Origin: Alphaproteobacteria bacterium
Lineage (GTDB): Bacteria > Pseudomonadota > Alphaproteobacteria > Rs-D84 > CACZYB01
Length of the DNA stretch: 64,000 bases
Assembly (NCBI GenBank): GCA_017938435.1
Contig: JAGBBO010000006.1
Coordinates: 8,945 to 72,944 of the forward strand
Reading direction: 5' to 3'
Shown: positions 19,083-46,400 of the stretch, piece after piece
Layout: the number at the start of each line of letters is the position of its first letter
How positions within the stretch are numbered: the first letter of the stretch is position 1
Translations under genes and position numbers: made by a program
Notes under the pieces: model-generated
Database searches by the model: none
The model's input: only the letters and a program-made list of their open reading frames with translations
What the model was told of the DNA's origin: nothing

Positions 19083-22034
19083 TTAATACCCTTCCTTTAT
19101 CAAATCAAGAATTGTTTCCTGATCAGTATATGGAATATTTTTTGTGCCAAATGTGACATAGTCTTCATGCCCTTTTCCAGCAACCAAAATAACATCGTCA
19201 GGTTTTGAAATTTCCATTGCCTTTTTAATAGCATCACGACGACCAGTTTTTACCTCTATCGCATTAGGGCAATGTTTCAAAATTTCATCCCTTATTTTTT
19301 GTGGATCTTCACATCTTGGCGAATCATCAGTTAATATAGGAATATCGGCATATTTATTTGCAATAGTGCCAAGTTCAAAACGACGAGTATTTGCTTCGTA
19401 AATATCACCACAAGTGCTAAATACATTTATAATTCGACCATTTTCCTTTAACATAGGGCGTATAGTTTTAAGAGTATTTTCCAAAGCTTCTCCCTTATAC
19501 GCAAAATCGACATAGATACTTGCCCCTGATTTCGTTTTTCCCATATATTCAAGACGACCAAGTGCATTTCTAACATTTCCAAGGAGTGGAATTACCCTTT
19601 CCCAATCAGGTGTTGTTGCCGCAACCATACCCAATGCACACATAAGATTGTTAAGTTGGAATGAACCAAGAATTTTTAAATCCAAATGGTATTTTTTACC
19701 AAACAATTCCACATCTGCAATTTGTCCTTCCAAACTGGTTTGTTGAGATAAAATTTTAAGTTCAGTTCCGTTTCGTCCGTATGAAAATACCCTGACGCCT
19801 CGATTATCACAAATTTGTTTTAAATAATCGTATTCTGGAACATCTGCATTTAAAACAGCAGTCCCTGTAATATCAAGATTTTCACGGAAAAGTTTTGATT
19901 TAGATTTTAAATAAGAATCATAACTTCCATAAAATTCAAGATGATCAGTTCCAAGGTTTGAAAAACCTGCGGCTGAAATTTTTATATTTTCCATACGAAG
20001 TTGATCAAGTCCATGGCTTGATAATTCAATCGCACCATGTTCAACACCTTTTTCCTTAAAATATTTCAAAAATTTGTATGCTTCACCATTACCAGGTGTT
20101 GTATGATCGGCATCACTAAACTTTACAATTTCCTTTTTACTGTAAACATTTTCCACAATCATACCTATTGTGCCGATACTTATTGTTGGGAATGAAAGCA
20201 ATCCCCAAATTTGTCTTGTAAAATCGACAATAGATGATTTTCCACTGGTTCCAGTAATTGCACAAATAACTTCGGGTTGCTTTTTATCATAGAAAGTAAA
20301 TACCAAATCAGCCAAAGCCTTTCTTGGATTTTCGGTTCTAACTATGAAAATATTTTTTTCCTTTATCAAAGACAAAGTTTTTTCATCAAATTCGTATGAT
20401 GGTTCAACGACAATAGCTTTTGCTCCTTTTTGAATAGCATCATATGAATAATTAGCACCATTTTGTGCAAATCCTTTTATACCAACAAAAATACTTCCAT
20501 CGACAATAGTTTTGGAATCACATGAAACAAGATGAATTGGTGTATCGGTCGCACCATTACATTCGTATCCTGCTTCGGAAAGAAGTTTATTTAGCGGTTT
20601 TGAAGGTAAGGCAAGTTTGTTTCTAATAAACTCTTTATCCTTTTCATACATAGTTCCACAAATTATAATTGAATCCCAATCGCGTGATGTATCAATTATT
20701 TCATTGATAGCTTCGTAACGATTTGGAATTACCCTAGCCTTTGGGCAATATTTAAGCAATGTTGAACGAATATTTTCAGGATTTTCAGTTCTTGGATTAT
20801 CATCTACAATTACAACTGTATCTGCATACTCATTTAAAACTTTACCCATTTCAATACGACGAATTTCTGGTCTATCTCCACTGCAACCAGCAATGCAAAT
20901 AAGATTATGTTTTACATGCGGTCTGAACTCGGTCAAAAGTTTTTTAAGCCCGTCACCATTATGTCCGAAATCAACAAATATTTTTGCCCCATTAGGTGTA
21001 GTTGCAACATATTCAATACGACCTTTTTCATTTTTTATATCAGAAACTTTTGAAAGTATTTTTTCCCAATCTTTATAAGATGAAATAAACATTCCAAGTG
21101 CACACATAAAATTAAATACTTGGAACTTGGTAACAAGGTTTAATGTCATATCATAAGTTTTTCCAAATATTGATAATTTTACTTGTTGTTTATCATCGAC
21201 TATTTCATATTTTTCAAGTCTGATATCGGATTGTTGATTTTCACCGTATGTTATAACTTTTATTCCCCGAGATTCACAAACATCAACAACTTTTTGTCCT
21301 TTTGCATCATCTATGTTTATTGTTGCAGTGCCATCGGAATCAAGAAGTTCAGAAAATAGACGAAGTTTTGCATTAAAGTATTCTTCGACCGTTTTATGAT
21401 AATCCAAATGATCGTTTGAAATATTTGTAAAACCAGCTGATTTTATTTTTACACTATCGGCACGATGTTGTTCAATACCATGACTGGAAGTTTCTATGGC
21501 TACATTTGTAACACCAGAAGAAGCAAGATTATCTAAATTTTTATGCAAATCAATAGCATCTGGTGTTGTTAAAGTTTTTCCACCTACACCATCAGGAGTA
21601 TGAATACCAACTGTTCCAATAGATGCAGATTTAAGATCAATAAATTCCCACATCTGACGAATAAAGTTTACAACTGAACTTTTTCCATTTGTTCCTGTTA
21701 CTGCACAAATAAATTCTGGTTGATTAGGGTAAAAATTACTTGCAATAATAGATTCAACTAAACGAATATTATCTACAAATATAAATGGAATATGTTGATA
21801 TTTTTTAATATCTATATAATCTTTGTTTTCTTTATTAGTAAGGATAGCAACAGCACCCAAATTTATTGCATCATCAATGAAATCAGCACCATTAACTTTT
21901 GTTCCTTTTACTGCAATAAAAAGACTACCTTTATTAACTTTTGATGAATTATTTTCAACAGAGGTTATATCTAAATCCAAATTTTTATTTTCTATTTCAT
22001 AAGAAATATTATTTAATAATTCTGAAAGTAACAT
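19083..22034 (-). CDS. murE: Tandem Mur-ligase fusion protein, 983 aa: MurE-like N-half (DNPR motif) and MurE/MurF-like C-half (DSPR motif)
   Basis: Two complete Mur ligase modules, each with a P-loop (TGTNGKSS / TGTSGKSS), an SSHG motif (ETSSHGIEQHR / ELSSHGLDQLR), a DHLD/DHLE motif and a C-terminal DDNPRTENP / DDSPRCEDP motif. Confidence 0.8.
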   Translation of the reverse strand: MLLSELLNNISYEIENKNLDLDITSVENNSSKVNKGSLFIAVKGTKVNGADFIDDAINLGAVAILTNKENKDYIDIKKYQHIPFIFVDNIRLVESIIASNFYPNQPEFICAVTGTNGKSSVVNFIRQMWEFIDLKSASIGTVGIHTPDGVGGKTLTTPDAIDLHKNLDNLASSGVTNVAIETSSHGIEQHRADSVKIKSAGFTNISNDHLDYHKTVEEYFNAKLRLFSELLDSDGTATINIDDAKGQKVVDVCESRGIKVITYGENQQSDIRLEKYEIVDDKQQVKLSIFGKTYDMTLNLVTKFQVFNFMCALGMFISSYKDWEKILSKVSDIKNEKGRIEYVATTPNGAKIFVDFGHNGDGLKKLLTEFRPHVKHNLICIAGCSGDRPEIRRIEMGKVLNEYADTVVIVDDNPRTENPENIRSTLLKYCPKARVIPNRYEAINEIIDTSRDWDSIIICGTMYEKDKEFIRNKLALPSKPLNKLLSEAGYECNGATDTPIHLVSCDSKTIVDGSIFVGIKGFAQNGANYSYDAIQKGAKAIVVEPSYEFDEKTLSLIKEKNIFIVRTENPRKALADLVFTFYDKKQPEVICAITGTSGKSSIVDFTRQIWGLLSFPTISIGTIGMIVENVYSKKEIVKFSDADHTTPGNGEAYKFLKYFKEKGVEHGAIELSSHGLDQLRMENIKISAAGFSNLGTDHLEFYGSYDSYLKSKSKLFRENLDITGTAVLNADVPEYDYLKQICDNRGVRVFSYGRNGTELKILSQQTSLEGQIADVELFGKKYHLDLKILGSFQLNNLMCALGMVAATTPDWERVIPLLGNVRNALGRLEYMGKTKSGASIYVDFAYKGEALENTLKTIRPMLKENGRIINVFSTCGDIYEANTRRFELGTIANKYADIPILTDDSPRCEDPQKIRDEILKHCPNAIEVKTGRRDAIKKAMEISKPDDVILVAGKGHEDYVTFGTKNIPYTDQETILDLIKEGY

Positions 22035-23360: not shown

Positions 23361-23395
23361 AAAATCCCCGTTTTGAATTTCGGGGATTTTTATTT
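23361..23395. terminator. Bidirectional terminator (aaaatccccg-ttttgaattt-cggggatttt)
   Basis: GC-clamped hairpin flanked by A-run and T-run between convergent alr and ctp. Confidence 0.75.
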
Positions 23396-24826
23396 TATTT
23401 TTTAGAAGGCTGTTTAGTATTTATAGCAGGTTGTTTTGATGGCTTTTTTACTTCTGGTTTTTTAACTGGTTTCACAGAAGAAAATCTTTCACCATAAATT
23501 GCCAAACCCTTTACCATATCAACAGCACGATTAAGTTGATAATCGTTTTTATCGCGTTCTTCTTCAATCTTTTCACGCTCTGCCTTTGCATCTTTTTTAA
23601 TGATTGATTTTGTATCATTTTTAAGAGCATTAGTCAAAGTTTCCTCAGAGAACATTCTATCTTCTTTTACTTCTTCAATTTTTGCACGATTGACTTCGAC
23701 ATCAGGTTCAATACCATCAGCTTGGATTGAACGACCACTTGGAGTATAATATCTTGCAGTAGTAATTTTAAGAGCTGTATCCCCAATAGGAATCAATGTT
23801 TGAACAGAACCTTTACCATAAGATTTTGTTCCAATTAAAACTGCACGGCGATGATCTTGCAATGCTCCAGCAACAATTTCCGCAGCCGATGCAGAAGCTC
23901 CATTTATAATCACAACCAATGGTTTATTATCCAATATATCCCCTTCTGATGCAAAGAAAACACGGCTGGCATTTTCTTGGCGTGACATAATAGAAACAAT
24001 TTCACCCTCAGATAAAAAGGCATCTGAAATCTTAACTGCTTGATCAAGAAGTCCGCCTGTATTATTTCGTAAATCAAGAACGAAACCAATGACCTTTGGA
24101 TTTTCTGATTTTATTTTTTTTATCGCCTTTATCATATCATCATAGGAATTTTCATTAAATGTAGAAAGACGAATATAACCAACAGAATTGTCAGCCTTCA
24201 TCTTTGATTTAACCGGTTCCGTGCGAATAATATCACGGGTCACAACAATATCAAGAGGTTCAGAATTTTCGCGGAAAATTTTAAGTTTTACTTTTGTCCC
24301 TGGTTTACCCTTCATACGCTTAATTGCCTCTTGTAATGATAAACCTTGAACTTGGACATCATCAATATGAGTGATTAAATCCCCTGCTTCGACACCAGCC
24401 TTAAAAGCAGGACTATCATCAAGTGGAGAAATAACTTTTATAACACCTTTATCCATTGTGACCTCAATACCAAGACCGCCAAACGAACCAGATGTTTGTT
24501 CATTCATAGAATTAAAATCTTCTTCATTTAAAAAACTTGAATGAGGGTCAAGTTTGGAAAGCATTCCATCTATGGCTCCTTCTATCAACTTTTTATTATC
24601 GACATCATCAACATAGCGAGTTTTTGTTATTTCAAATGCACGACCAAAAAGCTCAAGCATTTCGTAAACATCTGAATCCTTTTTAGTTGATACTTTTTTT
24701 TCATTTTTCGATGCTGCACCTGTCAATTTTGATGATGAAATTTCATAAGAAACAATAGAGGCTATAAAAAATACAAATGCCAATGTTGTTAATAATTTTG
24801 TAAATGAAGAATGTTTTTTAGCCATA
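23395..24826 (-). CDS. ctpA: Carboxy-terminal processing protease (S41) with PDZ domain. Start chosen at the internal ATG (MAKKHSS...) preceded by AGGAG
   Basis: S41 motifs (...GGLGIEV... PDZ region; ...NNTGGLLDQAVKISD...; ...SASAAEIVAGALQD...). Signal-anchor N-terminus. Ribosome-binding site AGGAG 8 nt upstream of ATG at 24826. Confidence 0.85.
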
Positions 24827-24897
24827 AGTAATCTCCTTTGTTTTATATAATTAAAACATAAAATAAACCAAAATTGCAACAATTATTGATTTATTTC

Positions 24898-27819: not shown

Positions 27820-30606
27820 ATGCAAAAAAAATACATTCTTGTTGATGGATCTGGTTATATTTTTAGGGCGTTTTATGCTTTACCACCTATTTCCAGAAGT
27901 GACAATTTGCCTGTTGGTGCAGTGTATGGATTTTGCAATATGCTTTTAAAACTTTTGAATGAAAGACATAATCCAAACGAAATTATTGCTGTGATTTTTG
28001 ATAAGGCTAGAAAAAATTTTAGAAATGAAATTTATCCTGAATACAAGGCAAATCGTTCAGAAACTCCGGAAGAACTTATTCCTCAATTTTCATATATAAG
28101 AAAAGCTGTGGAGGCATTCAATATTGCATCTATTGAACAGGCTGGGTTCGAAGCTGATGATTTAATTGCAACTTATGCGACACAAGCCGAAGCAAATGGT
28201 GATAAAGTCGTAATTTATTCATCGGATAAAGATTTAATGCAACTTATGACTCCGAATATTCGTATTCATGATCCACTTAAAAACAAAGATATTGATGAAG
28301 AAACTGTGCTTCAAAAATTCGGTGTTGAACCATCAAAAGTCATTGAAGTTCAAGCCTTAATTGGTGATAGTGTAGATAATATTCCTGGGGTTCGTGGTAT
28401 TGGTCCAAAGACTGCGGCTGAACTTATTCTAAAGTATGGAAGCATTGAAAATTTGATTGAAAATGCAAAAAATATTAAACAGGACAAACGCCGTCAGATG
28501 ATTATTGATGGGGCTGAAAATGCAAAAATTTCGAAACAACTTGCAACACTTAAAAAAGATGTGCCCGTAGAATTTCCATTATCTTCTATTGTAAATTGTC
28601 CCGTTGAAAAAAATAGGATTATGGCATTTTTAGAAGAAATGGAATTTAAATCTTTGGTAACAAAAGCGAATAATTTCATTGATAGTGTAAACAAAATTTT
28701 TGATGAAAATGCTATTATTGTATCAGAAGTTGAACCAGAGAAAAAAGTATTTAAACAAATTGAAAAACATTATGAACTTGTTCGTGATATTCCTACACTT
28801 GAAAAATGGATAAAAGAGTGTGAAAACAAGGGAATATTTGCTGTTGATACAGAAACAACTGGACTTAATAGTTTGGATGCAAAAATTGTAGGTATGAGTA
28901 TTGCAACAGATGAAGGAAAGGCTTGCTATATTCCTATACACCATATAAAAAAAGTATTTGATGGGGCTGATTTATTTAATGATGGTCAGGATGTATTGCA
29001 AGAAAATCAAATTCCAATAGATGAACTTGTTAAACGAATAAAACCTCTGCTTGAAAATCCAAACATAAAAAAAATTGGGCATAATATAAAATATGATATG
29101 CACATTTTTAAACAACTTGGAATAACGGTATATCCAATAGAAGATACTATGGTAATGAGTTATGTATTGGATAGTTCAAAAAATCTTCATAATATGGATG
29201 AACTTGCAAATATACATCTTGGATATACAACAATTCATTATACTGATGTATGTGGAACTGGAAAAGCACAAATTTCATTTTCCGAAGTGCCATTTGATAA
29301 AGCGTTGGATTACGCAGCCGAAGATGCTGATGTAACTTTACGACTTTACAATAATTTTAAGGAAAGAATTGAAAAAGAAAATTGTTCGGAAATTTATTAC
29401 AATATCGATTTACCACTTATTTATAATCTTTTTGAAATGGAAGAATTGGGTGTGTGTGTCGATACAGAAAAACTGATATCGTTAAGTAAAAATTTTGAAG
29501 AAATTTTGACTGGACTTGCAACTGAAATTTACACATTGTCAGGAATGGAATTTAATATACTTTCACCAAAACAACTTGGAGAAGTATTGTTTGAAAAAAT
29601 GGCTATACCCTACCCTGAAAAAAACAAAAAATCTTACTCAACAGATGTGGAAATTTTAAAACAACTTTCGTATCAAGGGTATGAAATTGCAGGTAAAGTT
29701 TTGAAATATCGTGAACTTGCAAAACTTAAAAGCACTTATGCTGATGCCTTAGTAGGACAAGTTTTACCAAGGGATAATCGTGTTCACACAAACTATTTTC
29801 AATGTGGAACATCAACAGGAAGACTTTCATCAAACGATCCAAATCTTCAAAATATTCCTGTGCGTTCCGAACTTGGAAAAGATATTCGCTCAGCATTTGT
29901 GGCAAAGGATGGATATATGCTTTTATCCGCAGATTACTCGCAAATAGAATTGCGACTTATGGCTGCAACTGCACATGTAAAAAATTTGGAAAAAGCTTTC
30001 TTGGATAATGTTGATATTCATACAAGAACTGCATCTCAAATTTTTGGTATTCCTGAAAATGAAATGACTCCGGATATAAGGAGAAAAGCAAAGGCAATAA
30101 ACTTTGGCATCATTTATGGAATATCTGCTTTTGGATTGGCGAAACAACTTGATATTCCTCAAACCGAAGCAAAAGAATATATTGATAATTATTTTAAAAT
30201 ATACCCTGAAATCCTTGATTATATGGAAAAGGCAAAAGCATTCGCTCATGCAAATGGATATGTTGAAACTATTTATGGAAGAAAACTTTTTATTGCAAAT
30301 ATAAATAATCCAAGATTAAAGGCGTATGCTGAACGTGCTGCAATAAATGCTCCGATGCAAGGAACTGGCGCTGAAATATTAAAGAAAGCTATGATTCGAA
30401 TCCGTGAAATTTTAAAGAAACAAAATTTAGAATCAGATGTTCGTATGTTATTACAGGTGCATGATGAACTTGTCTTTGAAGTTAAGGAAGATAAGATTGA
30501 AATCGCAACTAAGATAATAAAAGAAACTATGGAAAACATTGAAAAATTCTCTATTCCTTTGGTTGTAGAAGTTGGTGTTGCCAAAAATTGGACAGATGCA
30601 CATTAA
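27820..30606 (+). CDS. polA: DNA polymerase I (5'-3' exonuclease, 3'-5' exonuclease and polymerase domains)
   Basis: 5'-nuclease N-terminus (ILVDGSGYIFRAFYA), 3'-5' exonuclease (FAVDTETTGLN), polymerase motifs A (LLSADYSQIELR), B (RRKAKAINFGIIYG) and C (QVHDELVFE). Confidence 0.95.
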   Translation: MQKKYILVDGSGYIFRAFYALPPISRSDNLPVGAVYGFCNMLLKLLNERHNPNEIIAVIFDKARKNFRNEIYPEYKANRSETPEELIPQFSYIRKAVEAFNIASIEQAGFEADDLIATYATQAEANGDKVVIYSSDKDLMQLMTPNIRIHDPLKNKDIDEETVLQKFGVEPSKVIEVQALIGDSVDNIPGVRGIGPKTAAELILKYGSIENLIENAKNIKQDKRRQMIIDGAENAKISKQLATLKKDVPVEFPLSSIVNCPVEKNRIMAFLEEMEFKSLVTKANNFIDSVNKIFDENAIIVSEVEPEKKVFKQIEKHYELVRDIPTLEKWIKECENKGIFAVDTETTGLNSLDAKIVGMSIATDEGKACYIPIHHIKKVFDGADLFNDGQDVLQENQIPIDELVKRIKPLLENPNIKKIGHNIKYDMHIFKQLGITVYPIEDTMVMSYVLDSSKNLHNMDELANIHLGYTTIHYTDVCGTGKAQISFSEVPFDKALDYAAEDADVTLRLYNNFKERIEKENCSEIYYNIDLPLIYNLFEMEELGVCVDTEKLISLSKNFEEILTGLATEIYTLSGMEFNILSPKQLGEVLFEKMAIPYPEKNKKSYSTDVEILKQLSYQGYEIAGKVLKYRELAKLKSTYADALVGQVLPRDNRVHTNYFQCGTSTGRLSSNDPNLQNIPVRSELGKDIRSAFVAKDGYMLLSADYSQIELRLMAATAHVKNLEKAFLDNVDIHTRTASQIFGIPENEMTPDIRRKAKAINFGIIYGISAFGLAKQLDIPQTEAKEYIDNYFKIYPEILDYMEKAKAFAHANGYVETIYGRKLFIANINNPRLKAYAERAAINAPMQGTGAEILKKAMIRIREILKKQNLESDVRMLLQVHDELVFEVKEDKIEIATKIIKETMENIEKFSIPLVVEVGVAKNWTDAH

Positions 30607-30680
30607 AAAAATATAAAAAAAACTTTACAAATTTTTTTCTGTTTGATATCATACTGGTGTTGAGAAATTGGGGGGGCGCT

Positions 30681-31085
30681 ATGAATATCTTTCGAAATAT
30701 TTTTATTTTAGTATTCGCTGTTTTGTGGTCTTCTGTTTCTTATTCGGCTGATAGAGCTGCGATTGAATCTGCATTATCTAAATACTGTATAGGTTGTAGA
30801 GTAAATGCCGATGATGAACAGGTTCCAGTCTATACTCCAAGTAAGACAGATAAGCCAACAATGTGTGGTTGTGATACATCTTCTGGATATGTTTATAATA
30901 CAACAAAGAGAATCTGTAAACTTTGTGAAAACGGATCTGTTGCGACTACATTTGCTGTGGATTGCCAACCTATTGTTTGCCCAAGAGGAACTTATAGAGC
31001 GGAGGTTGCAAAATGGAATCAAAATTGCCCAAGAGGTTCATATCAAGGAATTTTAATAAATCAAAATACAACATATATTAAATAG
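30681..31085 (+). CDS. Secreted cysteine-rich protein with GCC2/GCC3 (ephrin-receptor-like) CxxCPxG[ST]Y repeats. Start placed at ATG 30681, after the G7 ribosome-binding site
   Basis: Signal peptide MNIFRNIFILVFAVLWSSVSYSA. Repeats CQPIVCPRGTY and CPRGSY, plus CGCDTSSGYVY. G7 run at 30670-30676, 4 nt before the ATG. Confidence 0.6.
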   Translation: MNIFRNIFILVFAVLWSSVSYSADRAAIESALSKYCIGCRVNADDEQVPVYTPSKTDKPTMCGCDTSSGYVYNTTKRICKLCENGSVATTFAVDCQPIVCPRGTYRAEVAKWNQNCPRGSYQGILINQNTTYIK

Positions 31086-31096
31086 TGGGGTTCATT

Positions 31097-31849
31097 ATGA
31101 AGATAAAATTACTTAAATTGTTAGATAAAATTTTAAAAATGTTTGCATTTATTGGATTGTTTTCTTTTAAAACATCAACTAATGCTCAAACTGCATATCA
31201 ATGTTTACCATGTCCAGAAGGATATACGACTTCGTCTGCTGGTGCGACTTCTAGTTCTAGTTGTGTTCCTGTTAGACAAGCAACTGGCGATTTTGTGAAG
31301 ACTTGCACTAATGCAAATTGCACAGGAACGCTTACAAGGGGTTGGTATAGAATCACTTTGAATACAGCAAATGGTTCTGCTGGTGCTGGTGTTGCTGCTG
31401 TTGGAAATAGTAAAAGTTGTTGTCATACATACAATAATACTTGTATGGCATACAACGAAGTTGCTGGTTGTGTAGCAAGAAATGGTGGTGCTGGTGGTAA
31501 AGGATTAACAAAATCTTATGTGATTTATTTGTCAGAAACTGCTTCTTATTCTTACACATACAATAGTGGTGCGCCAAAGATTGTTATTTCAAATAGCAAG
31601 GATGGAACAAGGACTTTCCAACTTTCTGCTGCGGGAAATGGAACAAACGCATCAAGATCATCGAAATCGGTATCTAACTCTTCAACATATCCTGCTTGCA
31701 CTAAAACTACTTGGACAAGTGCTGCTGGAACAAATGGAGCTGCTTCGACTGTTAGAATCGAAAGTGGTTTGATTGGAAGAGATGCTTCTAGTTCTGCTAT
31801 TGATGGAACAACATCTGGAACTGGTGTAAAAATTACAAAACTTTCTTAA
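31097..31849 (+). CDS. Secreted Ser/Thr/Gly/Ala-rich protein with an N-terminal CxxCPxGY cysteine motif. Start at ATG 31097, after a GGGG ribosome-binding site
   Basis: Signal peptide MKIKLLKLLDKILKMFAFIGLFSF...A. Motif YQCLPCPEGYTTSS...CVP. Low-complexity S/T/G/A/N-rich body. 11 nt after the upstream gene. Confidence 0.55.
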   Translation: MKIKLLKLLDKILKMFAFIGLFSFKTSTNAQTAYQCLPCPEGYTTSSAGATSSSSCVPVRQATGDFVKTCTNANCTGTLTRGWYRITLNTANGSAGAGVAAVGNSKSCCHTYNNTCMAYNEVAGCVARNGGAGGKGLTKSYVIYLSETASYSYTYNSGAPKIVISNSKDGTRTFQLSAAGNGTNASRSSKSVSNSSTYPACTKTTWTSAAGTNGAASTVRIESGLIGRDASSSAIDGTTSGTGVKITKLS

Positions 31850-31958
31850 TATAAAAATTAAACTAAAAAATGAAAAAGAAAGTATTATTTACTTTCTTTT
31901 TTTATTTTGCTATGGTAAAATTTGTAAATAAAATTATGAAGGTTAGGAAAATTTATAA

Positions 31959-32318
31959 ATGGCAAAAGAAAATGAAGAAATGATTATAATTCCAGTTGGC
32001 CTTAATTATGGAAAATGTATTACCTATGATGATTTACAAGAAGCTGGTTTTTATAACACTTTGTCCGATATTGATGAGCATATGCGTGATTGTTTGAAAC
32101 GTGCCGATGAGATAAAGGACGCTATTGAAATGGCTGAAAAGGAACGCTATTTTTCCGTATCTGATAGAAATAAGGATTACACTGGTTTGGAATTAAAGTT
32201 CGAAAAATTAAGAAATGAACTCGCTTCGTTTCATGATTTTATTATGCAATTTGGCGATAATGAAGTATGGAATTCTGTTGTAAGAAATTTTCCTGATGAA
32301 AATAAGGGTGAAAAATGA
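31959..32318 (+). CDS. Hypothetical protein, 119 aa, acidic. Its stop overlaps the start of the downstream glycosyltransferase (ATGA)
   Basis: ORF with a 4-nt overlap to the GT2+GT8 gene. No family recognised. Confidence 0.4.
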   Translation: MAKENEEMIIIPVGLNYGKCITYDDLQEAGFYNTLSDIDEHMRDCLKRADEIKDAIEMAEKERYFSVSDRNKDYTGLELKFEKLRNELASFHDFIMQFGDNEVWNSVVRNFPDENKGEK

Positions 32319-34162
32319 AAGATTTAATTTCTGTTATTGTTTTGGTTTATAACCGTGAAAAAGTTGTTGGACGATGTTTGGAACACCTTATCAATCAGTC
32401 ATACAAAAATCTTGAAATTATTTGTGTAAATGATGGTTCAAAGGATAAATCTTTAGAAATTTTACAAGAGTATGCAAAAAAAGATAGTCGTATAAAAATA
32501 ATAAACAATCCTAAAAATATGGGCATTGCTTATTCTCGAAATGCTGGTCTTGATGCTGCAACTGCGGAATACATTATGTGGTGTGATAGTGATGATTGGT
32601 ATGATAGGCATATGTGCAAAACAATGCTTAAAGCCATTACACAAAATAATGTAGATTATGCTGAATGTCCTGCAAAAATTGTATATGAAAATGAAAATCT
32701 TGGCGTTAGAAAAAATTGGAATCAACAACGTGATTGGGAGTTAAGGTGGACTGGTAAAAAGAAGGTTGATTTGGCTGTTTGCAGACATACTGGCTGTTTT
32801 TTATGGAATAAAATTTTCAAAAAATCATTTATAAATAAGTATGGTTTAAGAATTCCAAATATCAACACTCATGAAGATACTATTTTCGTGTCTATTTATA
32901 TTATGCTTTCAAAAAATGCGTATCTTGTGAAGGAAAAACTTTACTATTATGTAATTCATTCTGGTTCGACTATTGATAAAGTATATGAAGAAAAACGAGG
33001 ATTTACTGAGTTTGAAGAAGTTGAATATTTTTCAAAGTGGGCTGGTGGATTTATTAAGGAACATGGACTTACACAAATATATCCTATGTATAATGAACTG
33101 TTATATACAAAGATATTTAATTTTCTACTGAATGCAAGCATACTTACAAATAATATTCAAATAATCTTAGGTAAAAAACTTGAAGATTTAAAAAAAAAAT
33201 TTGAACAGTTGAACGAAATTGAAGTAAAAGCTCTTTTAAAAAAAGAGGATGAAATCAAGTTACAAAAGATAGCAGAAAGAAATAAAATTATAGAAAAAGA
33301 AAATAAAATTCGAGAAGTTAAATTCGAACCTATGGATATATTTTTTACTGCTGATGATAAGTATGCTGAACATTTGGCAACTACTTTGGTTTCGATACTT
33401 TTGAATGCAAATTATTCTGATGAATTTAATTTTCATATTTTAGATGGTGGCATTTCGTGGCTAAACAAACGAAAAATCCTTAAACTAAAAAATATAAAAT
33501 CATGTAATATTGAATTTTTAAAAGTTGATACAAGTCTTTTTAAAAATTTTCCATTGGAAATTTCTTATATGTCCCTTGCAACATATTATAAATACCTTAT
33601 TCCAAGAATAAAAAGAAAAATCAAACGTGCACTTTATTTGGATTGCGATTTGATTGTAAGGGATTCACTTCATAATTTTTATTATCAAGATTTTAAAAAC
33701 AAGGCGGTTGTTGTTTGCGATGATGCGTATTGGGATTCTGATTTTGCGAAAAAATATAAAATCAAAAATTATTTCAATGCTGGTGTTATGTTGATTGATT
33801 GCGTTAAATGGCGTGCAAAAAAGTATATTGATGAACTTTTTAAACAAACAAAACTTTTGAAAGATGATATAAAACACGAAGATCAAGATGTGTTAAATTA
33901 TGTCCTTAAAAATGACAAGTTATTGGAAAGCCAAAGATATAATCTTCAAGTATATTCATCTATTACTCATAAATTCAAAGGATTGAAAAAAGATACAATA
34001 CTTTCCATTACTGCAAATCCTGCGATTGTGCATTATAATACAAAAGAAAAGCCATGGACTGGACATTCAATACACCCTTACACTATGGAATATTTTATTT
34101 ACAAAAATAAAACCCCGTTTAAAAACAGGGTTAAGAAAGATTTAGAAAAAGTCATTGGATAA
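32315..34162 (+). CDS. Bifunctional glycosyltransferase: N-terminal GT2 plus C-terminal GT8, joined by a coiled-coil linker
   Basis: GT2: SVIVLVYN...CVNDGSKD...YIMWCDSDD. GT8: LDCDLIV (DxD), YFNAGVMLID, DQDVLN, VHYNTKEKPW. Paralog of 16139-17860. Confidence 0.8.
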   Translation: MKDLISVIVLVYNREKVVGRCLEHLINQSYKNLEIICVNDGSKDKSLEILQEYAKKDSRIKIINNPKNMGIAYSRNAGLDAATAEYIMWCDSDDWYDRHMCKTMLKAITQNNVDYAECPAKIVYENENLGVRKNWNQQRDWELRWTGKKKVDLAVCRHTGCFLWNKIFKKSFINKYGLRIPNINTHEDTIFVSIYIMLSKNAYLVKEKLYYYVIHSGSTIDKVYEEKRGFTEFEEVEYFSKWAGGFIKEHGLTQIYPMYNELLYTKIFNFLLNASILTNNIQIILGKKLEDLKKKFEQLNEIEVKALLKKEDEIKLQKIAERNKIIEKENKIREVKFEPMDIFFTADDKYAEHLATTLVSILLNANYSDEFNFHILDGGISWLNKRKILKLKNIKSCNIEFLKVDTSLFKNFPLEISYMSLATYYKYLIPRIKRKIKRALYLDCDLIVRDSLHNFYYQDFKNKAVVVCDDAYWDSDFAKKYKIKNYFNAGVMLIDCVKWRAKKYIDELFKQTKLLKDDIKHEDQDVLNYVLKNDKLLESQRYNLQVYSSITHKFKGLKKDTILSITANPAIVHYNTKEKPWTGHSIHPYTMEYFIYKNKTPFKNRVKKDLEKVIG

Positions 34163-34181: not shown

Positions 34182-35138
34182 CTATTTTGTAAATTTAATA
34201 TATGAGAAATCAGACACAGGATCCAATTCTATTTCATCCCCATCCGAATCTTTTTTTACTTTTGTATTATTTTCATACCAATTATCAAATTCTTCTTGAA
34301 TCATCTCGTCATCACCATCATATGAGAAAGTTGCATATATACCATTTAATCCACTTGGACAATAAGAAGCTCCATTATCAACATAAAAATAATACTTATC
34401 TAAATCTGATTTTAATATAGATTTATTTCCCAAATAATATTCCTCATTTGCTGATACATCTTTACAGAAATGACCACCATCATTTGGATTATCACCATCA
34501 GGTTCAAAATCATATACATATTTAGGGCTATTTTTAAATTTATTGATAATATCACTTTTAACAGAATTATTGTTACCATTTGCACGAATTTGAGCATTGG
34601 CAATAGCTTTTTGAACATTCATATCATTCATTTGATTTTCTGTTATCAATTTCATTCCACAATCGCTATACCTAAACGAAAAAGAAACATAATCTTTCAT
34701 TTTACTGAGATTTATTAAATCTGATAACTTATAAAAATTTCCTTCTTTTAATATTGTAGTTTTATTTTTAAATATATTTCCAAAAATTATATTATCAGAG
34801 AAACTCATAAAACCATTATCACAAACGGGAATATCTTCTATAAAAATATTCGAGTTAGTATCAGGACAATTACATGAAACACGAGAAGTATTTTCAGAAG
34901 AAATTGAAGTATTAGTTATTGGTTTTCTTGAAACGCTTTTAGCACTTGCCCTTTTACTTGACCTTGTCACAGAAACATTAGCTTTCTGACTTGAACCGGA
35001 CCTTTTACTTGATTTTGTTGAAGACGATGTTGCATTTTTTGAACTTGCAGAACGCAAGCCTTTTTTTGAAGATTTTTGAGTTTTTGCCAGCGAGTTTTCA
35101 CCCAATATAACAACAGATACAACTATCGCTGAAAGCAA
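34182..35138 (-). CDS. Secreted protein with a Ser/Lys/Thr-rich low-complexity N-terminal region and a Cys-containing C-terminal domain. Probable TTG start
   Basis: Signal-peptide-like N-terminus (LLSAIVVSVVILGENSLA). About 70 aa of S/K/T/R low complexity. Ribosome-binding site AGGGA upstream of TTG. In-frame TAG immediately upstream. Confidence 0.5.
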   Translation of the reverse strand: MLSAIVVSVVILGENSLAKTQKSSKKGLRSASSKNATSSSTKSSKRSGSSQKANVSVTRSSKRASAKSVSRKPITNTSISSENTSRVSCNCPDTNSNIFIEDIPVCDNGFMSFSDNIIFGNIFKNKTTILKEGNFYKLSDLINLSKMKDYVSFSFRYSDCGMKLITENQMNDMNVQKAIANAQIRANGNNNSVKSDIINKFKNSPKYVYDFEPDGDNPNDGGHFCKDVSANEEYYLGNKSILKSDLDKYYFYVDNGASYCPSGLNGIYATFSYDGDDEMIQEEFDNWYENNTKVKKDSDGDEIELDPVSDFSYIKFTK

Positions 35139-35751: not shown

Positions 35752-36462
35752 ATGAAAAAAATAATATTTACATTGTTCATTTTAATTATATCATTTACTG
35801 CAATAGCAAAGGAATACAATGAAAACGAAACTAAGGATTGTTCCAAAAATTCAGTTCTTATGTTTTGCGATTTAAATGGAAATACCATTACAGGATTTAT
35901 AAAAAAATATTACAAAAATAGCAATTTAAAAGGAGAAATTCCTCTTAAGGATGGTAAAATTGATGGTATAGGTAAATTATATTACGAAAACGGAAATTTA
36001 GAAAAAGAAATGAATTATAAAAATGGTAAACGTGAAGGTTCAACCAAAACATATTATGAAAATGGGAACTTAGAACAAGAAATAAATTATAAAGATGATA
36101 AACCTGAAGGTTTACTTAAGATGTATTCTGAAAATGGAAACTTAGAACAAGAAATAAATTATAAAGATGGTAAAATGAATTTGAACAAAGAATATTTTGA
36201 TAATGGAAATTTAAAGGTAGAAATAAATTATAAAGATGACAAAATTACATCATCCAAAATGTATTTTGAAGGAGGAAGTTTAAGGTTAGAGATGAATCAT
36301 GAAGGTTTAAAAACATATTATTGGAATGGAGATCTAGAACAAGAAGTTTATTTTAAAGATGGTAAAGCTATATCAGGATATATGTATGATGTTTCTGGAA
36401 AAAAGATAGAAATGACCAATGCTCATTTACACAATATGATGAAAAATATAAAAATAAATTAG
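35752..36462 (+). CDS. Secreted MORN-variant (MORN_2 / YwqK-like) repeat protein
   Basis: Signal peptide MKKIIFTLFILIISFTAIA. At least 6 repeats of YYENGNLEqEiNYKDGKxEG. Confidence 0.7.
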   Translation: MKKIIFTLFILIISFTAIAKEYNENETKDCSKNSVLMFCDLNGNTITGFIKKYYKNSNLKGEIPLKDGKIDGIGKLYYENGNLEKEMNYKNGKREGSTKTYYENGNLEQEINYKDDKPEGLLKMYSENGNLEQEINYKDGKMNLNKEYFDNGNLKVEINYKDDKITSSKMYFEGGSLRLEMNHEGLKTYYWNGDLEQEVYFKDGKAISGYMYDVSGKKIEMTNAHLHNMMKNIKIN

Positions 36463-39854: not shown

Positions 39855-39890
39855 AAAAAAAGCACTTTAAATAGTGCTTTTATTTTTTCC
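39855..39890. terminator. Bidirectional terminator (aaagcact-ttaaat-agtgcttt + T-run) between convergent xseB and virD4
   Basis: Perfect 8-bp stem with flanking A- and T-runs. Confidence 0.7.
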
Positions 39891-41985
39891 TTAACCAATC
39901 AGGCACAGCCGGTGCAGGTGGAATTTGTGATTTTGCAAGAAGTTTTGGATCCTTGTAATACCTTGGGCTTTCTGCCTCAATAGGGTATCGAGGATAACCT
40001 TGCATAATAACGATTTGTTTTTCCGGAGAAAGTGACATAATTTTACTTGTGCTATATAATGACTTTTTTCCAACGTTAATATCAAAATCTCGTTTAAATG
40101 CATTAAGATTGGTTCCGTTTTTATATTTTGTTTCAGCAAAATTCATATCACCCATAATCTTTGAAAAACGAGCTGCTGTATTTTCATTATTTTGTGTAAG
40201 CAAAATTTTTGCCGCAGTTGTTGACATCAAGGTTTCAACATGTTCACGACCATATCCTGCCTCTATCTGACCCAAATCCTGGGCAATTAAAAGATATGAA
40301 ACTTTTTGACCACGACCAACCGCAGGTCCATCAATAACGGCATTTAATTTTGGCATTTGAGGAAACTCGTCAAGTACAAAAAGTGTAGGACATGGTCCGG
40401 CTTTAACTCCACCACCTAAATCTTTTCCTGGTGGTGTAGAAATAAGATAATTTGACATCAATTCAACAAAAACACCAGTAATAACATTTAATGCACGGGC
40501 ATCTGTTTGATTTACTGATAAATAAATAGTCACAGGTTTCATTTTACCATCAGTTGGATCAACCATACCACGCAAATCTTTGAAAGAAAAATCACTATGT
40601 GAAGTTCTTTGGCGGACGGCTTGGTTTTTAAAAATACCAATACCAGTTAAACCAGTGGAAAGAATAGATCCTCGTTCCTTATCTGGCGTATTGGCAAGTT
40701 GTGTCATTTCCAAAACAGCACGATGAGAATATCCATAACGACGCGCTTCCATAACTGCATTTTCAAGCATTTCTTTCATAGGATCAGCAAGTGCAGCCAT
40801 TTGATCGCCCTGCTCCTTTCGTTGTCTTATATCCTCAGAAATATGGACCTGAGCTTCACTCATCCAATCAAGAAGCATTGGAATATTTGCTTCGTGTCCG
40901 ACCCATTCCTTTGGAATATCAGCCCATGTTCCAACAGGAACATAATTATCTTTATTTATTTTTCCCTCACGAAGAAGTGTTAATGCACCCATTGCATAAC
41001 TGTCATTCATAGAAAGATAATATTGTTCCAAACTTGCCGCATCACGCGCATTAAATTCTCCATTAGAAAGTCGTGTATAAAAATAATCACTAGCAGTTGC
41101 GCGTTCACATTTGGAAACTATGTAATGCATAAAACCAGAAAGTGCATTTCTACCAGTTTTTGACCAGTGTGGATCAGCCGAAGATCCAGCAGGATCTTGA
41201 ACAAAAACATTAACCATACTATCGATATACATATCCCTATCTGGACCTTGGGGAGGAATGGTGCCTGGTGATAATGGGTTCCATGATGGATAATATTCAC
41301 CCTTTTCAGGATTATCTTCTTTACCCCAATTCATAATAAACACAGGACCAATTTTTGCACGATAACCACTTGTGATATAACAAAGTTCTGGCTTAGGGTC
41401 ATTGACAATCATACTTACCGTATCACATTCAAAAATTGTTGGAATAACTATACCAACAGTTTTACCAGTTCCAGGAGGAGCACACGCAAGAACAGATAAT
41501 GTTTCTCCTAATTTTAAAAAACGCTTTTTAAAACGACCAAGAACTATAATAAATCCATCCCAAACTTTCATTTTTTTCATAATTTTTTCATCAGCATTTT
41601 TTGAATATGCCGCAGGGGTAGATGTGACATCATACGGATTAGAATTATTTATTACCACAAGTGTAGGCGGAATTGCCATAAGTGGAATTGCAGGAATAAT
41701 TGTTGATGTATGCCCACTTACAAAAGCCATAATCCATTCATAATAAGCCCATAAGACATAGAACCCAGCGGTATTAAAAATATTTCTAAAATATCGTTGC
41801 ATTTTTGCAGAATGGAAAACTGCCATATCGAAATCATGATTTACCCAAAAAGAAATTGGAAAAATCATTATCAAAACTCCCCACAAAAGAAGTCCTGATA
41901 TAATATATGCAAACATAAGCCATCGGGCAGCCTTTTGATGTTCGCCTTCATACTTATCTTCAAATACTTTTTTAAGAAATACCAT
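39880..41985 (-). CDS. virD4: Type IV secretion system coupling protein VirD4/TraG family. Start placed at internal ATG MVFLKK...
   Basis: Two N-terminal transmembrane segments, Walker A LACAPPGTGKTVGIVIPTI (compare APTRSGKGVGVVIPT in VirD4), Walker B LFVLDEFPQMPKL. Confidence 0.85.
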   Translation of the reverse strand: MVFLKKVFEDKYEGEHQKAARWLMFAYIISGLLLWGVLIMIFPISFWVNHDFDMAVFHSAKMQRYFRNIFNTAGFYVLWAYYEWIMAFVSGHTSTIIPAIPLMAIPPTLVVINNSNPYDVTSTPAAYSKNADEKIMKKMKVWDGFIIVLGRFKKRFLKLGETLSVLACAPPGTGKTVGIVIPTIFECDTVSMIVNDPKPELCYITSGYRAKIGPVFIMNWGKEDNPEKGEYYPSWNPLSPGTIPPQGPDRDMYIDSMVNVFVQDPAGSSADPHWSKTGRNALSGFMHYIVSKCERATASDYFYTRLSNGEFNARDAASLEQYYLSMNDSYAMGALTLLREGKINKDNYVPVGTWADIPKEWVGHEANIPMLLDWMSEAQVHISEDIRQRKEQGDQMAALADPMKEMLENAVMEARRYGYSHRAVLEMTQLANTPDKERGSILSTGLTGIGIFKNQAVRQRTSHSDFSFKDLRGMVDPTDGKMKPVTIYLSVNQTDARALNVITGVFVELMSNYLISTPPGKDLGGGVKAGPCPTLFVLDEFPQMPKLNAVIDGPAVGRGQKVSYLLIAQDLGQIEAGYGREHVETLMSTTAAKILLTQNNENTAARFSKIMGDMNFAETKYKNGTNLNAFKRDFDINVGKKSLYSTSKIMSLSPEKQIVIMQGYPRYPIEAESPRYYKDPKLLAKSQIPPAPAVPDWLRKK

Positions 41986-42045
41986 TTTCCCTATCCCTAT
42001 AGTAATAGTATAGCACATTTTTTTTATAAGGTAAAGTGGCAAAAT

Positions 42046-43200
42046 CTATTTAATTTGAGAATTTTCTATTTCTATAAATAATGAACTTTTATTTTCAAAA
42101 AACTCAAAATCTGAACGCAAAATTCCAGTCATCCAAACCTGTGTTGGAAGTTTTTCAAGTTCCTTAAACAACTCTAAAGTTTTTATTTCATCAAGATGGG
42201 CCGGAGCTTCGTCAATTAAAATTAACGGATACTTATTAAAATACAAATAAAGCATATTTGCATAAGCAAGAATTATCGAAATAACAGCCAACTTTTGTTC
42301 ACCAGTTGATGTTTGATCAGCAGGCATATTTTTATCCAAATTTATTGCTGAAAAATCGGAACGATGAACTCCTTCTACCGGTGGGGAAAAAGTAAATTTG
42401 AATAATTCCCTATTATCCAACAATGATTTTTTATAGAAATCCTCTACCTCAACGGATTTTAAGGTCTTTAGTTTTTCCTCTATTGCACCATCAATATGGA
42501 TTTGAATTTTTGGGAAGACATTATCCGAAGTCTTTAAAATATTATTAAGTTTTTCTTCGAATTCAATTCTTAATGCCGCAATAGAAACGCCCTTTTCTAC
42601 TATTTCAGACTCAATCGCATCAAGCCATTTTTCATCAACATTGTGTGATTTTAAAACCTTTGCCCTTTGTTTTAAAAGATTTGAATATTGGTTAAGGGAA
42701 ACGCCATAAAATGGATAAAAATTGGATATAAGATTATCAAGAAACTTTCTTCGTTCACCGGTTGCTTCGGAAAAAAGTCTATCCATAAACGGAGTAATCC
42801 AAATAACACGAATATAGTTTTGTAAATCGCCAACGGTTATATTATCATCATTAGCAATAATCTGTCTTTTTTCAACAATATCGTCATCATCAGAAATATT
42901 TTGTTTATCGGTGTAATTATAAGACAAACCAAGATTAAAAACATCATCATCACTTTCTATTTGTGAGGAAATTGTAAAAACAGAAATGTTTGCATTAGTT
43001 TTTCCAAGTTGCGAAAGTTTTGCCTTTCTGAATGGACCAGATTGTGATAGCATGGAAATTGCTTCTAAAATATTTGTCTTTCCAGCACCATTTTCACCAG
43101 TAATAATGATATTTTTTGAAAGATTAGTATCAATTCTTAATTTTTCATAAGAACGATAATTATTCAAAACAAGTCTTTTTATAAAATATGAATTTATCAT
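42046..43200 (-). CDS. recF: DNA replication and repair protein RecF
   Basis: Walker A GENGAGKTNILEAIS, signature region, Walker B LILIDEAPAHLD. 384 aa. Confidence 0.85.
   Translation of the reverse strand: MINSYFIKRLVLNNYRSYEKLRIDTNLSKNIIITGENGAGKTNILEAISMLSQSGPFRKAKLSQLGKTNANISVFTISSQIESDDDVFNLGLSYNYTDKQNISDDDDIVEKRQIIANDDNITVGDLQNYIRVIWITPFMDRLFSEATGERRKFLDNLISNFYPFYGVSLNQYSNLLKQRAKVLKSHNVDEKWLDAIESEIVEKGVSIAALRIEFEEKLNNILKTSDNVFPKIQIHIDGAIEEKLKTLKSVEVEDFYKKSLLDNRELFKFTFSPPVEGVHRSDFSAINLDKNMPADQTSTGEQKLAVISIILAYANMLYLYFNKYPLILIDEAPAHLDEIKTLELFKELEKLPTQVWMTGILRSDFEFFENKSSLFIEIENSQIK

Positions 43201-45305: not shown

Positions 45306-46400
<1,095 letters not shown>

Follow-up and report, generated by a model that had tools for sequence, protein, structure and literature searches.

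What is encoded by two small adjacent genes at positions 30681-31849 of a 64,000-nucleotide (nt) stretch of an Alphaproteobacteria bacterium genome (contig JAGBBO010000006.1; the whole stretch is called the window below), and what could their products do? The two open reading frames (ORFs), ORF1 and ORF2, originate from a metagenome-assembled genome (MAG), and both products (MBP3615380.1 and MBP3615381.1) are named at NCBI 'hypothetical protein [Alphaproteobacteria bacterium]'. An earlier note, made from the letters alone, had described them as secreted proteins with ephrin-receptor-like and TNFR-type cysteine repeats that may imitate eukaryotic surface proteins.

The answer proposed here, which we rate at about an even chance, is that ORF1 and ORF2 form a Sec-exported, disulfide-stabilised, non-enzymatic pair that works outside the cytoplasm as a joint binding or adhesion module. 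The pair has not been characterised before and combines module types that are known; what is new is its obligate pairing, its narrow lineage distribution, its fast divergence, and the possibility that a second domain is of glycine-rich receptor-binding type. If the proposal is true, a poorly known group of gut and rumen Alphaproteobacteria holds a private, fast-changing two-protein recognition module, whose parts are known elsewhere from eukaryotic surface receptors and from phage receptor-binding tips. It would then also offer a handle on what the uncultured hosts attach to (host mucus, protists, other bacteria, or plant fibre) and add a cellular bacterial case to the short list of glycine-rich binding folds. 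No established idea is changed by the finding, and the function is one that we infer.

The gene pair, its relatives and its rate of change

The motifs and the 11-nt spacing quoted in the earlier note were confirmed. ORF1 contains CIGC, CGCDTSSGYVY, CKLC, CQPIVCPRGTY, and NCPRGSY, the mature region of ORF2 begins with YQCLPCPEGYTTSSAGATSSSSCVP, and the intergenic gap (31086-31096) is exactly 11 nt long. A G-run Shine-Dalgarno sequence lies just 5' of the ATG start of ORF1. Longer TTG/GTG starts are taken to be unused and the ATG to be right, because all orthologues begin with MN.../MK... and MKIKLL. ORF1 and ORF2 are co-oriented and flanked by polA (27820-30606) before and a GT2/GT8 glycosyltransferase gene (32315-34162) after the pair. 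As for transcription signals, promoter-like sites in the region do not exceed the shuffled-sequence expectation, and the one upstream of ORF1 (30624-30652) is a consensus match only. The terminator hairpin at 31867-31908 is equalled in folding by 0 of 200 shuffles; the consensus scan missed it because its stem has too few G-C pairs. Given the 11-nt gap, one promoter-like site, and one hairpin terminator, ORF1 and ORF2 look like one bicistronic unit. They are thus probably co-transcribed as a two-gene operon closed by the hairpin, in agreement with the earlier description. Of the 12 loci in which both genes are complete, 11 have a gap of 11-27 nt and the remaining one has 87 nt.

According to motif counts alone, the case against chance is marginal. 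In six-frame translations of 200 simulated windows (the G+C content of the window is 31%), CPxGx[YFW] appears at least twice in 10% of the windows and CxxCPxG at least once in 6%. The motifs are regarded as real because ORF1 and ORF2 are the most cysteine-rich ORFs of at least 120 amino acids (aa) in the window (6.7% and 4.0%, respectively) and because the cysteines and the CPxGxY/CxxCPxG motifs are kept in orthologues 26-51% identical. One could still suppose that chance motifs sit in spurious or decaying ORFs, since motif counts are within reach of chance and the ratio of non-synonymous to synonymous substitution rates (dN/dS) is not far below 1, on few substitutions. This explanation deserves next to no credence, however, as conservation already refutes it: loci that are only 25-50% identical retain length, signal peptides, cysteine positions, and gene order, the 13-15 intact allelic variants found in 90% clusters have every cysteine invariant, and the ORF2 core is modelled with confidence.

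Both products look exported, as had been claimed, with signal-peptide-like N-termini that are modelled as helices. Each N-terminus opens with basic residues, continues with a hydrophobic core, and has small residues ahead of the likely cut, which falls between VSYS and A in ORF1 and between TNA and Q in ORF2. Residues invariant in the ORF2 N-terminus are M1, K2, K4, L9, K11, K14, F16, A17, F18, G20, S27, A30, and Q31, counted over 9 sequences that are 42-50% identical overall to ORF2 of the window, except for one 97% near-copy. In the ORF1 family, C36, C62, C64, C79, C82, C95, C100, and C116 are invariant in 9 orthologues. The invariant residues of both families are Cys, Gly, Pro, aromatic, and aliphatic ones, joined in ORF2 by the Gln and Ser of its cysteine-containing half-unit (described below); the exceptions are R85 in ORF2 and K34 in ORF1. 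Since no polar catalytic-type residue is invariant, both proteins are considered non-enzymatic.

A separate observation concerns residues 1-31 of ORF2 (MKIKLLNLLNKILKKFAFLG.FSF.TS.SAQT), which are the best-conserved part among orthologues 36-50% identical overall. This constraint acts on the peptide and not on the DNA, because synonymous changes are present; an RNA- or DNA-level cause of the signal-peptide conservation was rejected for the same reason.

The small and the large gene occur together in 12 of 12 loci in which both are complete, and these loci represent three different genomic neighbourhoods. In a thirteenth locus, a partial ORF1-like gene precedes the ORF2-like gene. Every ORF2-like gene examined has an ORF1-like gene directly upstream (the window, L001-L005, L011, L012, L090, L091, and L097-L100). 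The same holds for the most distant ORF2 relatives, P0021, P0030, P0032, and P0027, which are 23-36% identical to ORF2 of the window and have a small, signal-bearing, cysteine-rich ORF1-like gene directly upstream in 4 of 4 cases. The order ORF1-ORF2-ORF3-glycosyltransferase downstream of polA recurs in L001, L002, L003, L005, L011, L012, L090, and L091, and shorter contigs show parts of it. In L098 the pair lies between a DHH phosphoesterase gene and ddl/alaS, and in L100 it lies upstream of rplM. As ORF3 and the glycosyltransferase gene are not kept in these two loci, the conserved core consists of ORF1 and ORF2. ORF3 matches no Pfam family and does not follow the pair in L098 or L100; we treat it as a neighbour and not as an established part of the module. 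Modification of the Ser/Thr/Asn-rich ORF2 by the adjacent GT2/GT8 glycosyltransferase was considered and dropped, the gene being unlinked in distant relatives.

The pair diverges fast. Amino-acid identity to the window in L001, L090, and L003 is 33%, 38%, and 51% for ORF1 and 50%, 43%, and 49% for ORF2, versus 81%, 75%, and 86% for PolA; the overall ranges are 33-51% for the pair and 75-86% for PolA. Era (81% in L001 and 77% in L090) and CtpA (80% in both) were compared in two of these loci, and ORF3 reaches 24%, 27%, and 29% in the three. Relative to a 98.6%-identical contig, dN/dS equals 0.56 for ORF1 (6 non-synonymous and 3 synonymous substitutions), 0.63 for ORF2 (8 and 4), and 0.07 for ORF3, the values for the pair resting on 9-12 substitutions, which are too few to separate relaxed constraint from local positive selection. 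Positive selection on ORF1 and ORF2, considered as a candidate, is not shown by values of 0.56-0.63 on so few substitutions. From locus to locus ORF3 shares only 19-28% identity, even though its dN/dS among near-identical strains is 0.07.

The family is tiny and narrow, and is found only in relatives of uncultured gut and rumen Alphaproteobacteria. A word-indexed search of 5.8 billion proteins returned 9 ORF2 relatives. For ORF1 it returned 1 relative, a number that rose to 5 with a profile. A HMMER search with the ORF2 profile against 1.84 billion cluster representatives gave 25 proteins with E ≤1e-3, about 18 of them with the ORF2 architecture. A metagenome scan yielded just five short loci. 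The GTDB genome scan with the ORF2 alignment found nothing, a negative of little weight, because the single pattern used does not fit the ORF2 genes of L011 and L012 in the same collection. When PolA was scanned against one genome per GTDB species, the nearest genomes were uncultured alphaproteobacterial MAGs with names pointing to rumen or gut: RUI239 (89%) and RUG13061 (87%), followed by genomes at 80%, 75%, and 69-73%, with values of at most 55% outside the group. No NCBIfam match was found for ORF1 or ORF2. The Pfam and NCBIfam copies used assign neither gene, and the alignments define two new small families.

As for the site itself, the two genomes whose PolA is most similar to that of the window, L009 (89%) and L010 (87%), lack the cassette downstream of polA. 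The place of window positions 30607-34162 is taken there by a tRNA gene in L009 (6790-7395) and by cspA and a rumA-like gene in L010 (6820-10817). It is also absent at the polA site in L013-L016. Because PolA-distant genomes (75-81%) carry the cassette and the closest do not, the polA-downstream site is a rearrangement or gain/loss point.

Patchy presence, together with a small exported cysteine-rich protein, a tight two-gene unit, and fast evolution, would also fit bacteriocin-like loci. According to this explanation, ORF1 is a bacteriocin-like disulfide-rich peptide and ORF2 its carrier, receptor-binding partner, or toxic component of a secreted antagonistic system. However, no immunity, processing, or export gene is adjacent, no bacteriocin or toxin family is matched in Pfam or NCBIfam, and both proteins carry ordinary signal peptides instead of leader peptides, so that a role in antagonism seems very improbable.

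Similarity to ephrin-receptor-like and TNFR-type domains

In Pfam, a whole-protein score of 23.1 bits is the gathering threshold of the Ephrin_rec_like family (PF07699). ORF2 matches no other Pfam family, and its score, 20.1 bits over profile positions 24-48, is sub-threshold. ORF1 scores 17.0 bits over profile positions 9-23, also below the threshold; this is its second match after KH_KRR1_1st, the 18.2 bits of which lie over the signal peptide and are presumably spurious. In the ORF1 family as a whole, Ephrin_rec_like is the commonest match (6 of 9 members, best E 0.0013), and the ORF1 orthologues align to profile positions 1-37. The cysteine spacing of the domain, C-x2-C-P-x-G-x-[YF] / CP-x-G-x2-S-x2-G, is present and is invariant or nearly so among orthologues 26-51% identical. 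A complete unit of about 48 residues or a tandem array is present in neither ORF1 nor ORF2. The Pfam model is matched in its first half by ORF1 and in its second half by ORF2, so that together they might make up a single split ephrin-receptor-like unit.

A wider link was obtained with the ORF2-family profile. Against 1.84 billion proteins, it matched multi-repeat proteins with E from 1e-7 to 8e-4, via residues 33-66 only. Among these matches, P0028 (E 8.4e-7) and P0035 (E 8.1e-4) exceed the Pfam Ephrin_rec_like threshold with 48.8 and 61.1 bits, respectively. P0035, a giant surface protein of bacterial type, also bears five Listeria-Bacteroides (Flg_new) repeats, a bacterial surface-protein domain. 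When aligned by hhalign to units cut from proteins of the P0028/P0035 type, ORF2 reaches a probability of 95.8%, a value that is partly circular, as the units had been retrieved with the ORF2 profile; ORF1 reaches 71%. The nearest solved structure to ORF2 is Chlamydomonas Mst1 (8tx1), an 'ephrin type A/B receptor-like domain-containing protein', with a marginal E of 0.049.

Judged from these comparisons, ORF2 appears to carry one half-unit of the Ephrin_rec_like repeat type, and ORF1 irregular partial units of a similar type. The spacing C-x2-C-P-x-G-x2-S-x2-G-A-x5-C is shared with the cysteine-rich region of Eph receptors, Mst1, and P0035. Known members of the domain family, however, are long, multi-repeat, extracellular, and mostly eukaryotic, whereas ORF1 and ORF2 are short and bacterial, ORF2 having only the second half of one 48-residue unit and ORF1 only irregular partial units. 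On the other side of the balance, no member, orthologue, or distant relative of either family reaches the gathering score, neither ORF1 nor ORF2 qualifies as an Ephrin_rec_like member by the curated threshold, and convergence is possible, units of this type being short and simple. The ephrin-receptor-like claim thus stands as far as the best domain match of ORF2 and a significant profile link are concerned, but not as membership, for which at least 23.1 bits are never attained.

TNFR-type similarity fared worse. TNFR-type domains (TNFR_c6, the ELAPOR1 TNFR-like domain, and NCD3G) are likewise small disulfide-rich modules with a similar CxxC...C spacing, but TNFR_c6 is matched at no E up to 10 when ORF1, ORF2, and their relatives are compared with Pfam, and the claim of similarity to it is not supported. 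TNFR_ELAPOR1_6th and NCD3G match weakly, far below threshold and below Ephrin_rec_like. In PDB profile searches, TNFR chains appear with E values of 0.43 (TNFRSF5) and 1.7 (TNFRSF6B). Nor is ORF2 a repeat protein, as had been thought: beyond its one half-unit lies a 190-residue beta domain of another kind. The tyrosine of its 'CPEGY' (31223-31225, residue 43) does not belong to the conserved motif; the 13 alleles within one 90% cluster have either Y or Q there, and residue 43 is an insertion relative to orthologues, in which the tyrosine is missing. The earlier note had named the lack of a significant hidden Markov model (HMM) hit combined with an unrelated structure as the outcome that would count against it. 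What was found lies halfway, with sub-threshold HMM matches and most of ORF2 folding otherwise.

The literature gives the Ephrin_rec_like domain an early eukaryotic origin and reads its rare bacterial cases as gene transfer (PMC6993872), and the remark that such repeats are rare in bacteria was therefore fair. An origin of this kind, for the domain that gives the best Pfam matches, speaks for the explanation that the two genes were gained from a eukaryotic host or protist and that their secreted products act as eukaryote-mimicking effectors, imitating ephrin-receptor or TNFR-type cysteine-rich domains so as to interfere with host receptors. The genes also evolve fast, and the gut or rumen source material, as indicated by the MAG names, is protist-rich. 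However, no close eukaryotic homologue was found, the significant links are confined to a 25-residue half-unit, and all full-length relatives found sit in related bacterial contigs. In addition, bona fide units occur in P0035, a protein with bacterial Flg_new surface repeats, the pair is old within the lineage (about 25% identity has been reached while the genes are still linked), and most of ORF2 is not an Ephrin_rec_like domain. All members of the family that were found come from one bacterial lineage. The eukaryote mimicry that the earlier note had suggested, here taken as arising by gene transfer, is not supported, and we consider it improbable.

The beta core of ORF2 and a possible recognition role

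The AlphaFold2 model of ORF2, built on a nine-sequence alignment, has a mean predicted local distance difference test (pLDDT) score of 77 and a predicted template modelling (TM) score of 0.65. Over most of residues 64-250 pLDDT is about 90, and over residues 31-60 it is only 45-65. The drops of model confidence within the core coincide exactly with the two hypervariable segments listed in Table 1. Short glycine-rich motifs in the core are GSAGAG, GGAGGKG, AGNGT, AGTNG, and SGTG, and its conserved C-terminal strand reads G-x-KITKL. The best-conserved parts of ORF2 are the signal peptide, YQCLPCP, GWYR, and GGAGGxG...SYVIY...YNSGAP. As for ORF1, its AlphaFold model (pLDDT 45) is unusable for checking a beta-hairpin structure.

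According to Foldseek, the closest predicted viral structure matches ORF2 with E 3e-3, a probability of 0.99, and a TM score of 0.38. Ten of the top 50 viral matches are labelled 'Glycine-rich domain-containing protein' or 'receptor protein-tyrosine kinase', and the latter label we read as an automatic annotation derived from the ALK/LTK glycine-rich domain. The same 50 include one tail-fibre, two minor tail, and one C1q-domain protein. These fold matches are weak, but among them phage proteins with glycine-rich domains or of tail-fibre type are enriched. The distant ORF2 relatives P0027, P0030, and P0032 carry long runs (GGGGGG, GGGGGIGGGGSA) and keep the signal peptide, the YQCxPCPxG unit, the LxPGxYRVxL strand, and the C-terminal strand.

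In Pam3 gp24, S16 gp38, and ALK, a lattice of glycine-rich motifs is built on a TNF-like or beta-helix domain, and hypervariable tips on this lattice bind the receptor (PMC9608196). With the phage tail-fibre tips (Pam3 gp24 and Salmonella phage S16 gp38) ORF2 shares conserved Gly-rich motifs alternating with hypervariable segments, but it differs by its signal peptide, its chromosomal position, and the absence of a trimerising helix. GGGGxGG-type runs as in the phage tips and ALK occur in distant members of the ORF2 family and are lost from ORF2 of the window. Unlike phage fibre chaperones, the partner ORF1 is cysteine-rich and exported. ALK has small secreted ligands, and ORF2 is likewise paired with a small secreted protein, a parallel meant as an analogy only.

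The leading hypothesis for the ORF2 core, to which we give somewhat less than an even chance, is therefore a glycine-rich receptor-binding type related to phage tips and ALK/LTK. A more specific version, according to which ORF2 belongs to a cellular, non-phage branch of the TNF-like/glycine-rich fold, with a polyglycine lattice decayed to short Gly-x-Gly motifs and a need for the co-inherited secreted partner ORF1, appears unlikely. It would turn the two into a bacterial pair of a receptor-like domain and a small secreted ligand or co-factor.

Several searches tell against such a relationship. Foldseek of ORF2 against PDB gave nothing significant, the best matches being galectin-like or lectin-type sandwiches with E of at least 0.09, and neither ALK nor LTK is among the top 50. 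No sequence method connects ORF2 with ALK/LTK or with the glycine-rich domains of phages. ALK_LTK_GRD (Pfam PF12810) was seen for P0032 alone, at 7.1 bits and E 6.7, and PDB profile searches returned only linker-like Gly runs, with ALK, LTK, gp24, and gp38 absent. No match was obtained for ORF2 or its poly-Gly relatives in PHROGs, and no family member was found by tblastn against 50,697 phage records or in scans of IMG/VR viral contigs. Finally, ORF2 of the window lacks a true poly-Gly run; what it has instead is GGAGGKG and shorter motifs of the G-x-G type.

Taken as a binding pair, ORF1 and ORF2 are probably made together and exported by Sec, and they would fold in the oxidising periplasm with multiple disulfides. 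Mature ORF1 (about 110 aa) may be a string of small cysteine knots resembling the ephrin-receptor-like (GCC2/GCC3) repeat, and would act in a complex with ORF2 as its obligate partner. In ORF2, the predicted half-unit would be followed by a beta-sandwich-like domain, in which conserved Gly-rich motifs frame two hypervariable loops. This domain may be a degenerate relative of TNF-like plus glycine-rich receptor-binding domains such as those of phage tail-fibre tips and ALK/LTK. The two variable loops would form the recognition surface, by which the module would bind an external or envelope ligand.

Some features of the two proteins sit poorly with this proposal. The number of cysteines in the mature proteins is often odd and shows no co-variation between ORF1 and ORF2, hhalign detects no similarity between the ORF1 and ORF2 families, a surface anchor or sorting signal is recognised in neither protein, and both could equally stay in the periplasm. 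Two related candidates were set aside: a single intermolecular disulfide between ORF1 and ORF2, which finds no support as cysteine counts do not co-vary, and a paralogous origin of the two genes, rejected at an hhalign probability of 1%.

Sec-type signals with no recognisable surface-sorting signal also agree with periplasmic or envelope structural proteins that have no recognition role, for example, a disulfide-rich cell-wall or outer-membrane scaffold whose divergence reflects weak constraint. The dN/dS of 0.56-0.63 fits relaxed constraint, and in the lineage of the window the pair is surrounded by cell-wall genes (murE/F, alr, ctpA, and an M23 peptidase gene). The linkage to cell-wall genes is lost in distant relatives, however, variation is not even but concentrated in two loops between conserved motifs, and the absence of the cassette from the polA site of the two PolA-closest genomes would be unusual for a core envelope component. 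A purely structural role is therefore a serious but rather unlikely alternative.

Feature coordinates and other observations in the window

The features of the pair and of its immediate surroundings are collected in Table 1.

Table 1. Coordinates of the gene pair, its protein regions, and adjacent signals in the window
Feature	Position	Strand	Description
ORF1	30681-31085	+	134 aa; exported cysteine-rich protein (signal-peptide-like N-terminus); NCBI MBP3615380.1
ORF1 signal-peptide-like N-terminus, residues 1-23, MNIFRNIFILVFAVLWSSVSYSA	30681-30749	+	read from sequence; modelled helix residues 3-17; conserved in orthologues
ORF1 cysteine-rich region, residues 36-121	30786-31043	+	CxxC, CxC, CxxC pairs, then C-x4-CPxGxY and CPxGxY units
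ORF2	31097-31849	+	250 aa; exported protein (signal-peptide-like N-terminus); NCBI MBP3615381.1
ORF2 long signal-peptide-like N-terminus, residues 1-31	31097-31189	+	unusually conserved; modelled helix residues 3-20
ORF2 single Ephrin_rec_like-type half-unit (putative), residues 32-56, TAYQCLPCPEGYTTSSAGATSSSSC	31190-31264	+	Pfam 20.1 bits
ORF2 all-beta core domain, residues 64-250	31286-31846	+	AlphaFold model: 13 strands
ORF2 hypervariable, indel-prone segment 1, residues 101-125	31397-31471	+	lowest conservation; insertions of up to 24 residues in relatives; pLDDT 59-72
ORF2 hypervariable, indel-prone segment 2, residues 191-210	31667-31726	+	insertions of up to 16 residues in relatives; pLDDT 66
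ORF3, 119-aa acidic protein without signal peptide	31959-32318	+	follows the pair in the narrower clade and L097
Promoter-like site TTTACA-17-TATCAT with TG extension	30624-30652	+	10/12 consensus matches; upstream of ORF1
AT-rich hairpin followed by T-run, likely intrinsic terminator	31867-31908	+	-13.9 kcal/mol, z = -4.1

The window is ordinary chromosomal DNA from a walled bacterium of rod type and also encodes MreC, PBP2, RodA, a MurE-MurF fusion, glycogen phosphorylase, a CcrM-like methylase, and a VirD4-type coupling protein. The apparent MurE-MurF fusion is a single 983-aa ORF with two complete sets of Mur ligase domains (19083-22034, minus strand) and is also found in L001 and L090. 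A match to the Rfam family Rickettsia sRNA47 (RF02800; 23769-24072, plus strand; 64.7 bits versus a gathering score of 60 bits) lies antisense inside an S41 protease (ctpA-like) gene (23395-24882, minus strand) and may reflect conserved coding sequence and not a small RNA. At 34182-35138 (minus strand), adjoining the glycosyltransferase gene, a 318-aa ORF with a Ser/Lys-rich N-terminal half, a cysteine-containing C-terminal half, and no Pfam match may encode another exported protein.

A VirD4/TraG-type coupling protein of type IV secretion (39880-42042, minus strand) adjoins a RecF/SMC-like ATPase (42046-43200, minus strand); other type IV secretion genes were recognised in none of the window ORFs scanned. 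A MORN_2 repeat protein is encoded at 35752-36462 (plus strand). The CcrM-like N6/N4 DNA methylase (45312-46400, plus strand) has a C-terminal RAMA domain and fits an alphaproteobacterial origin.

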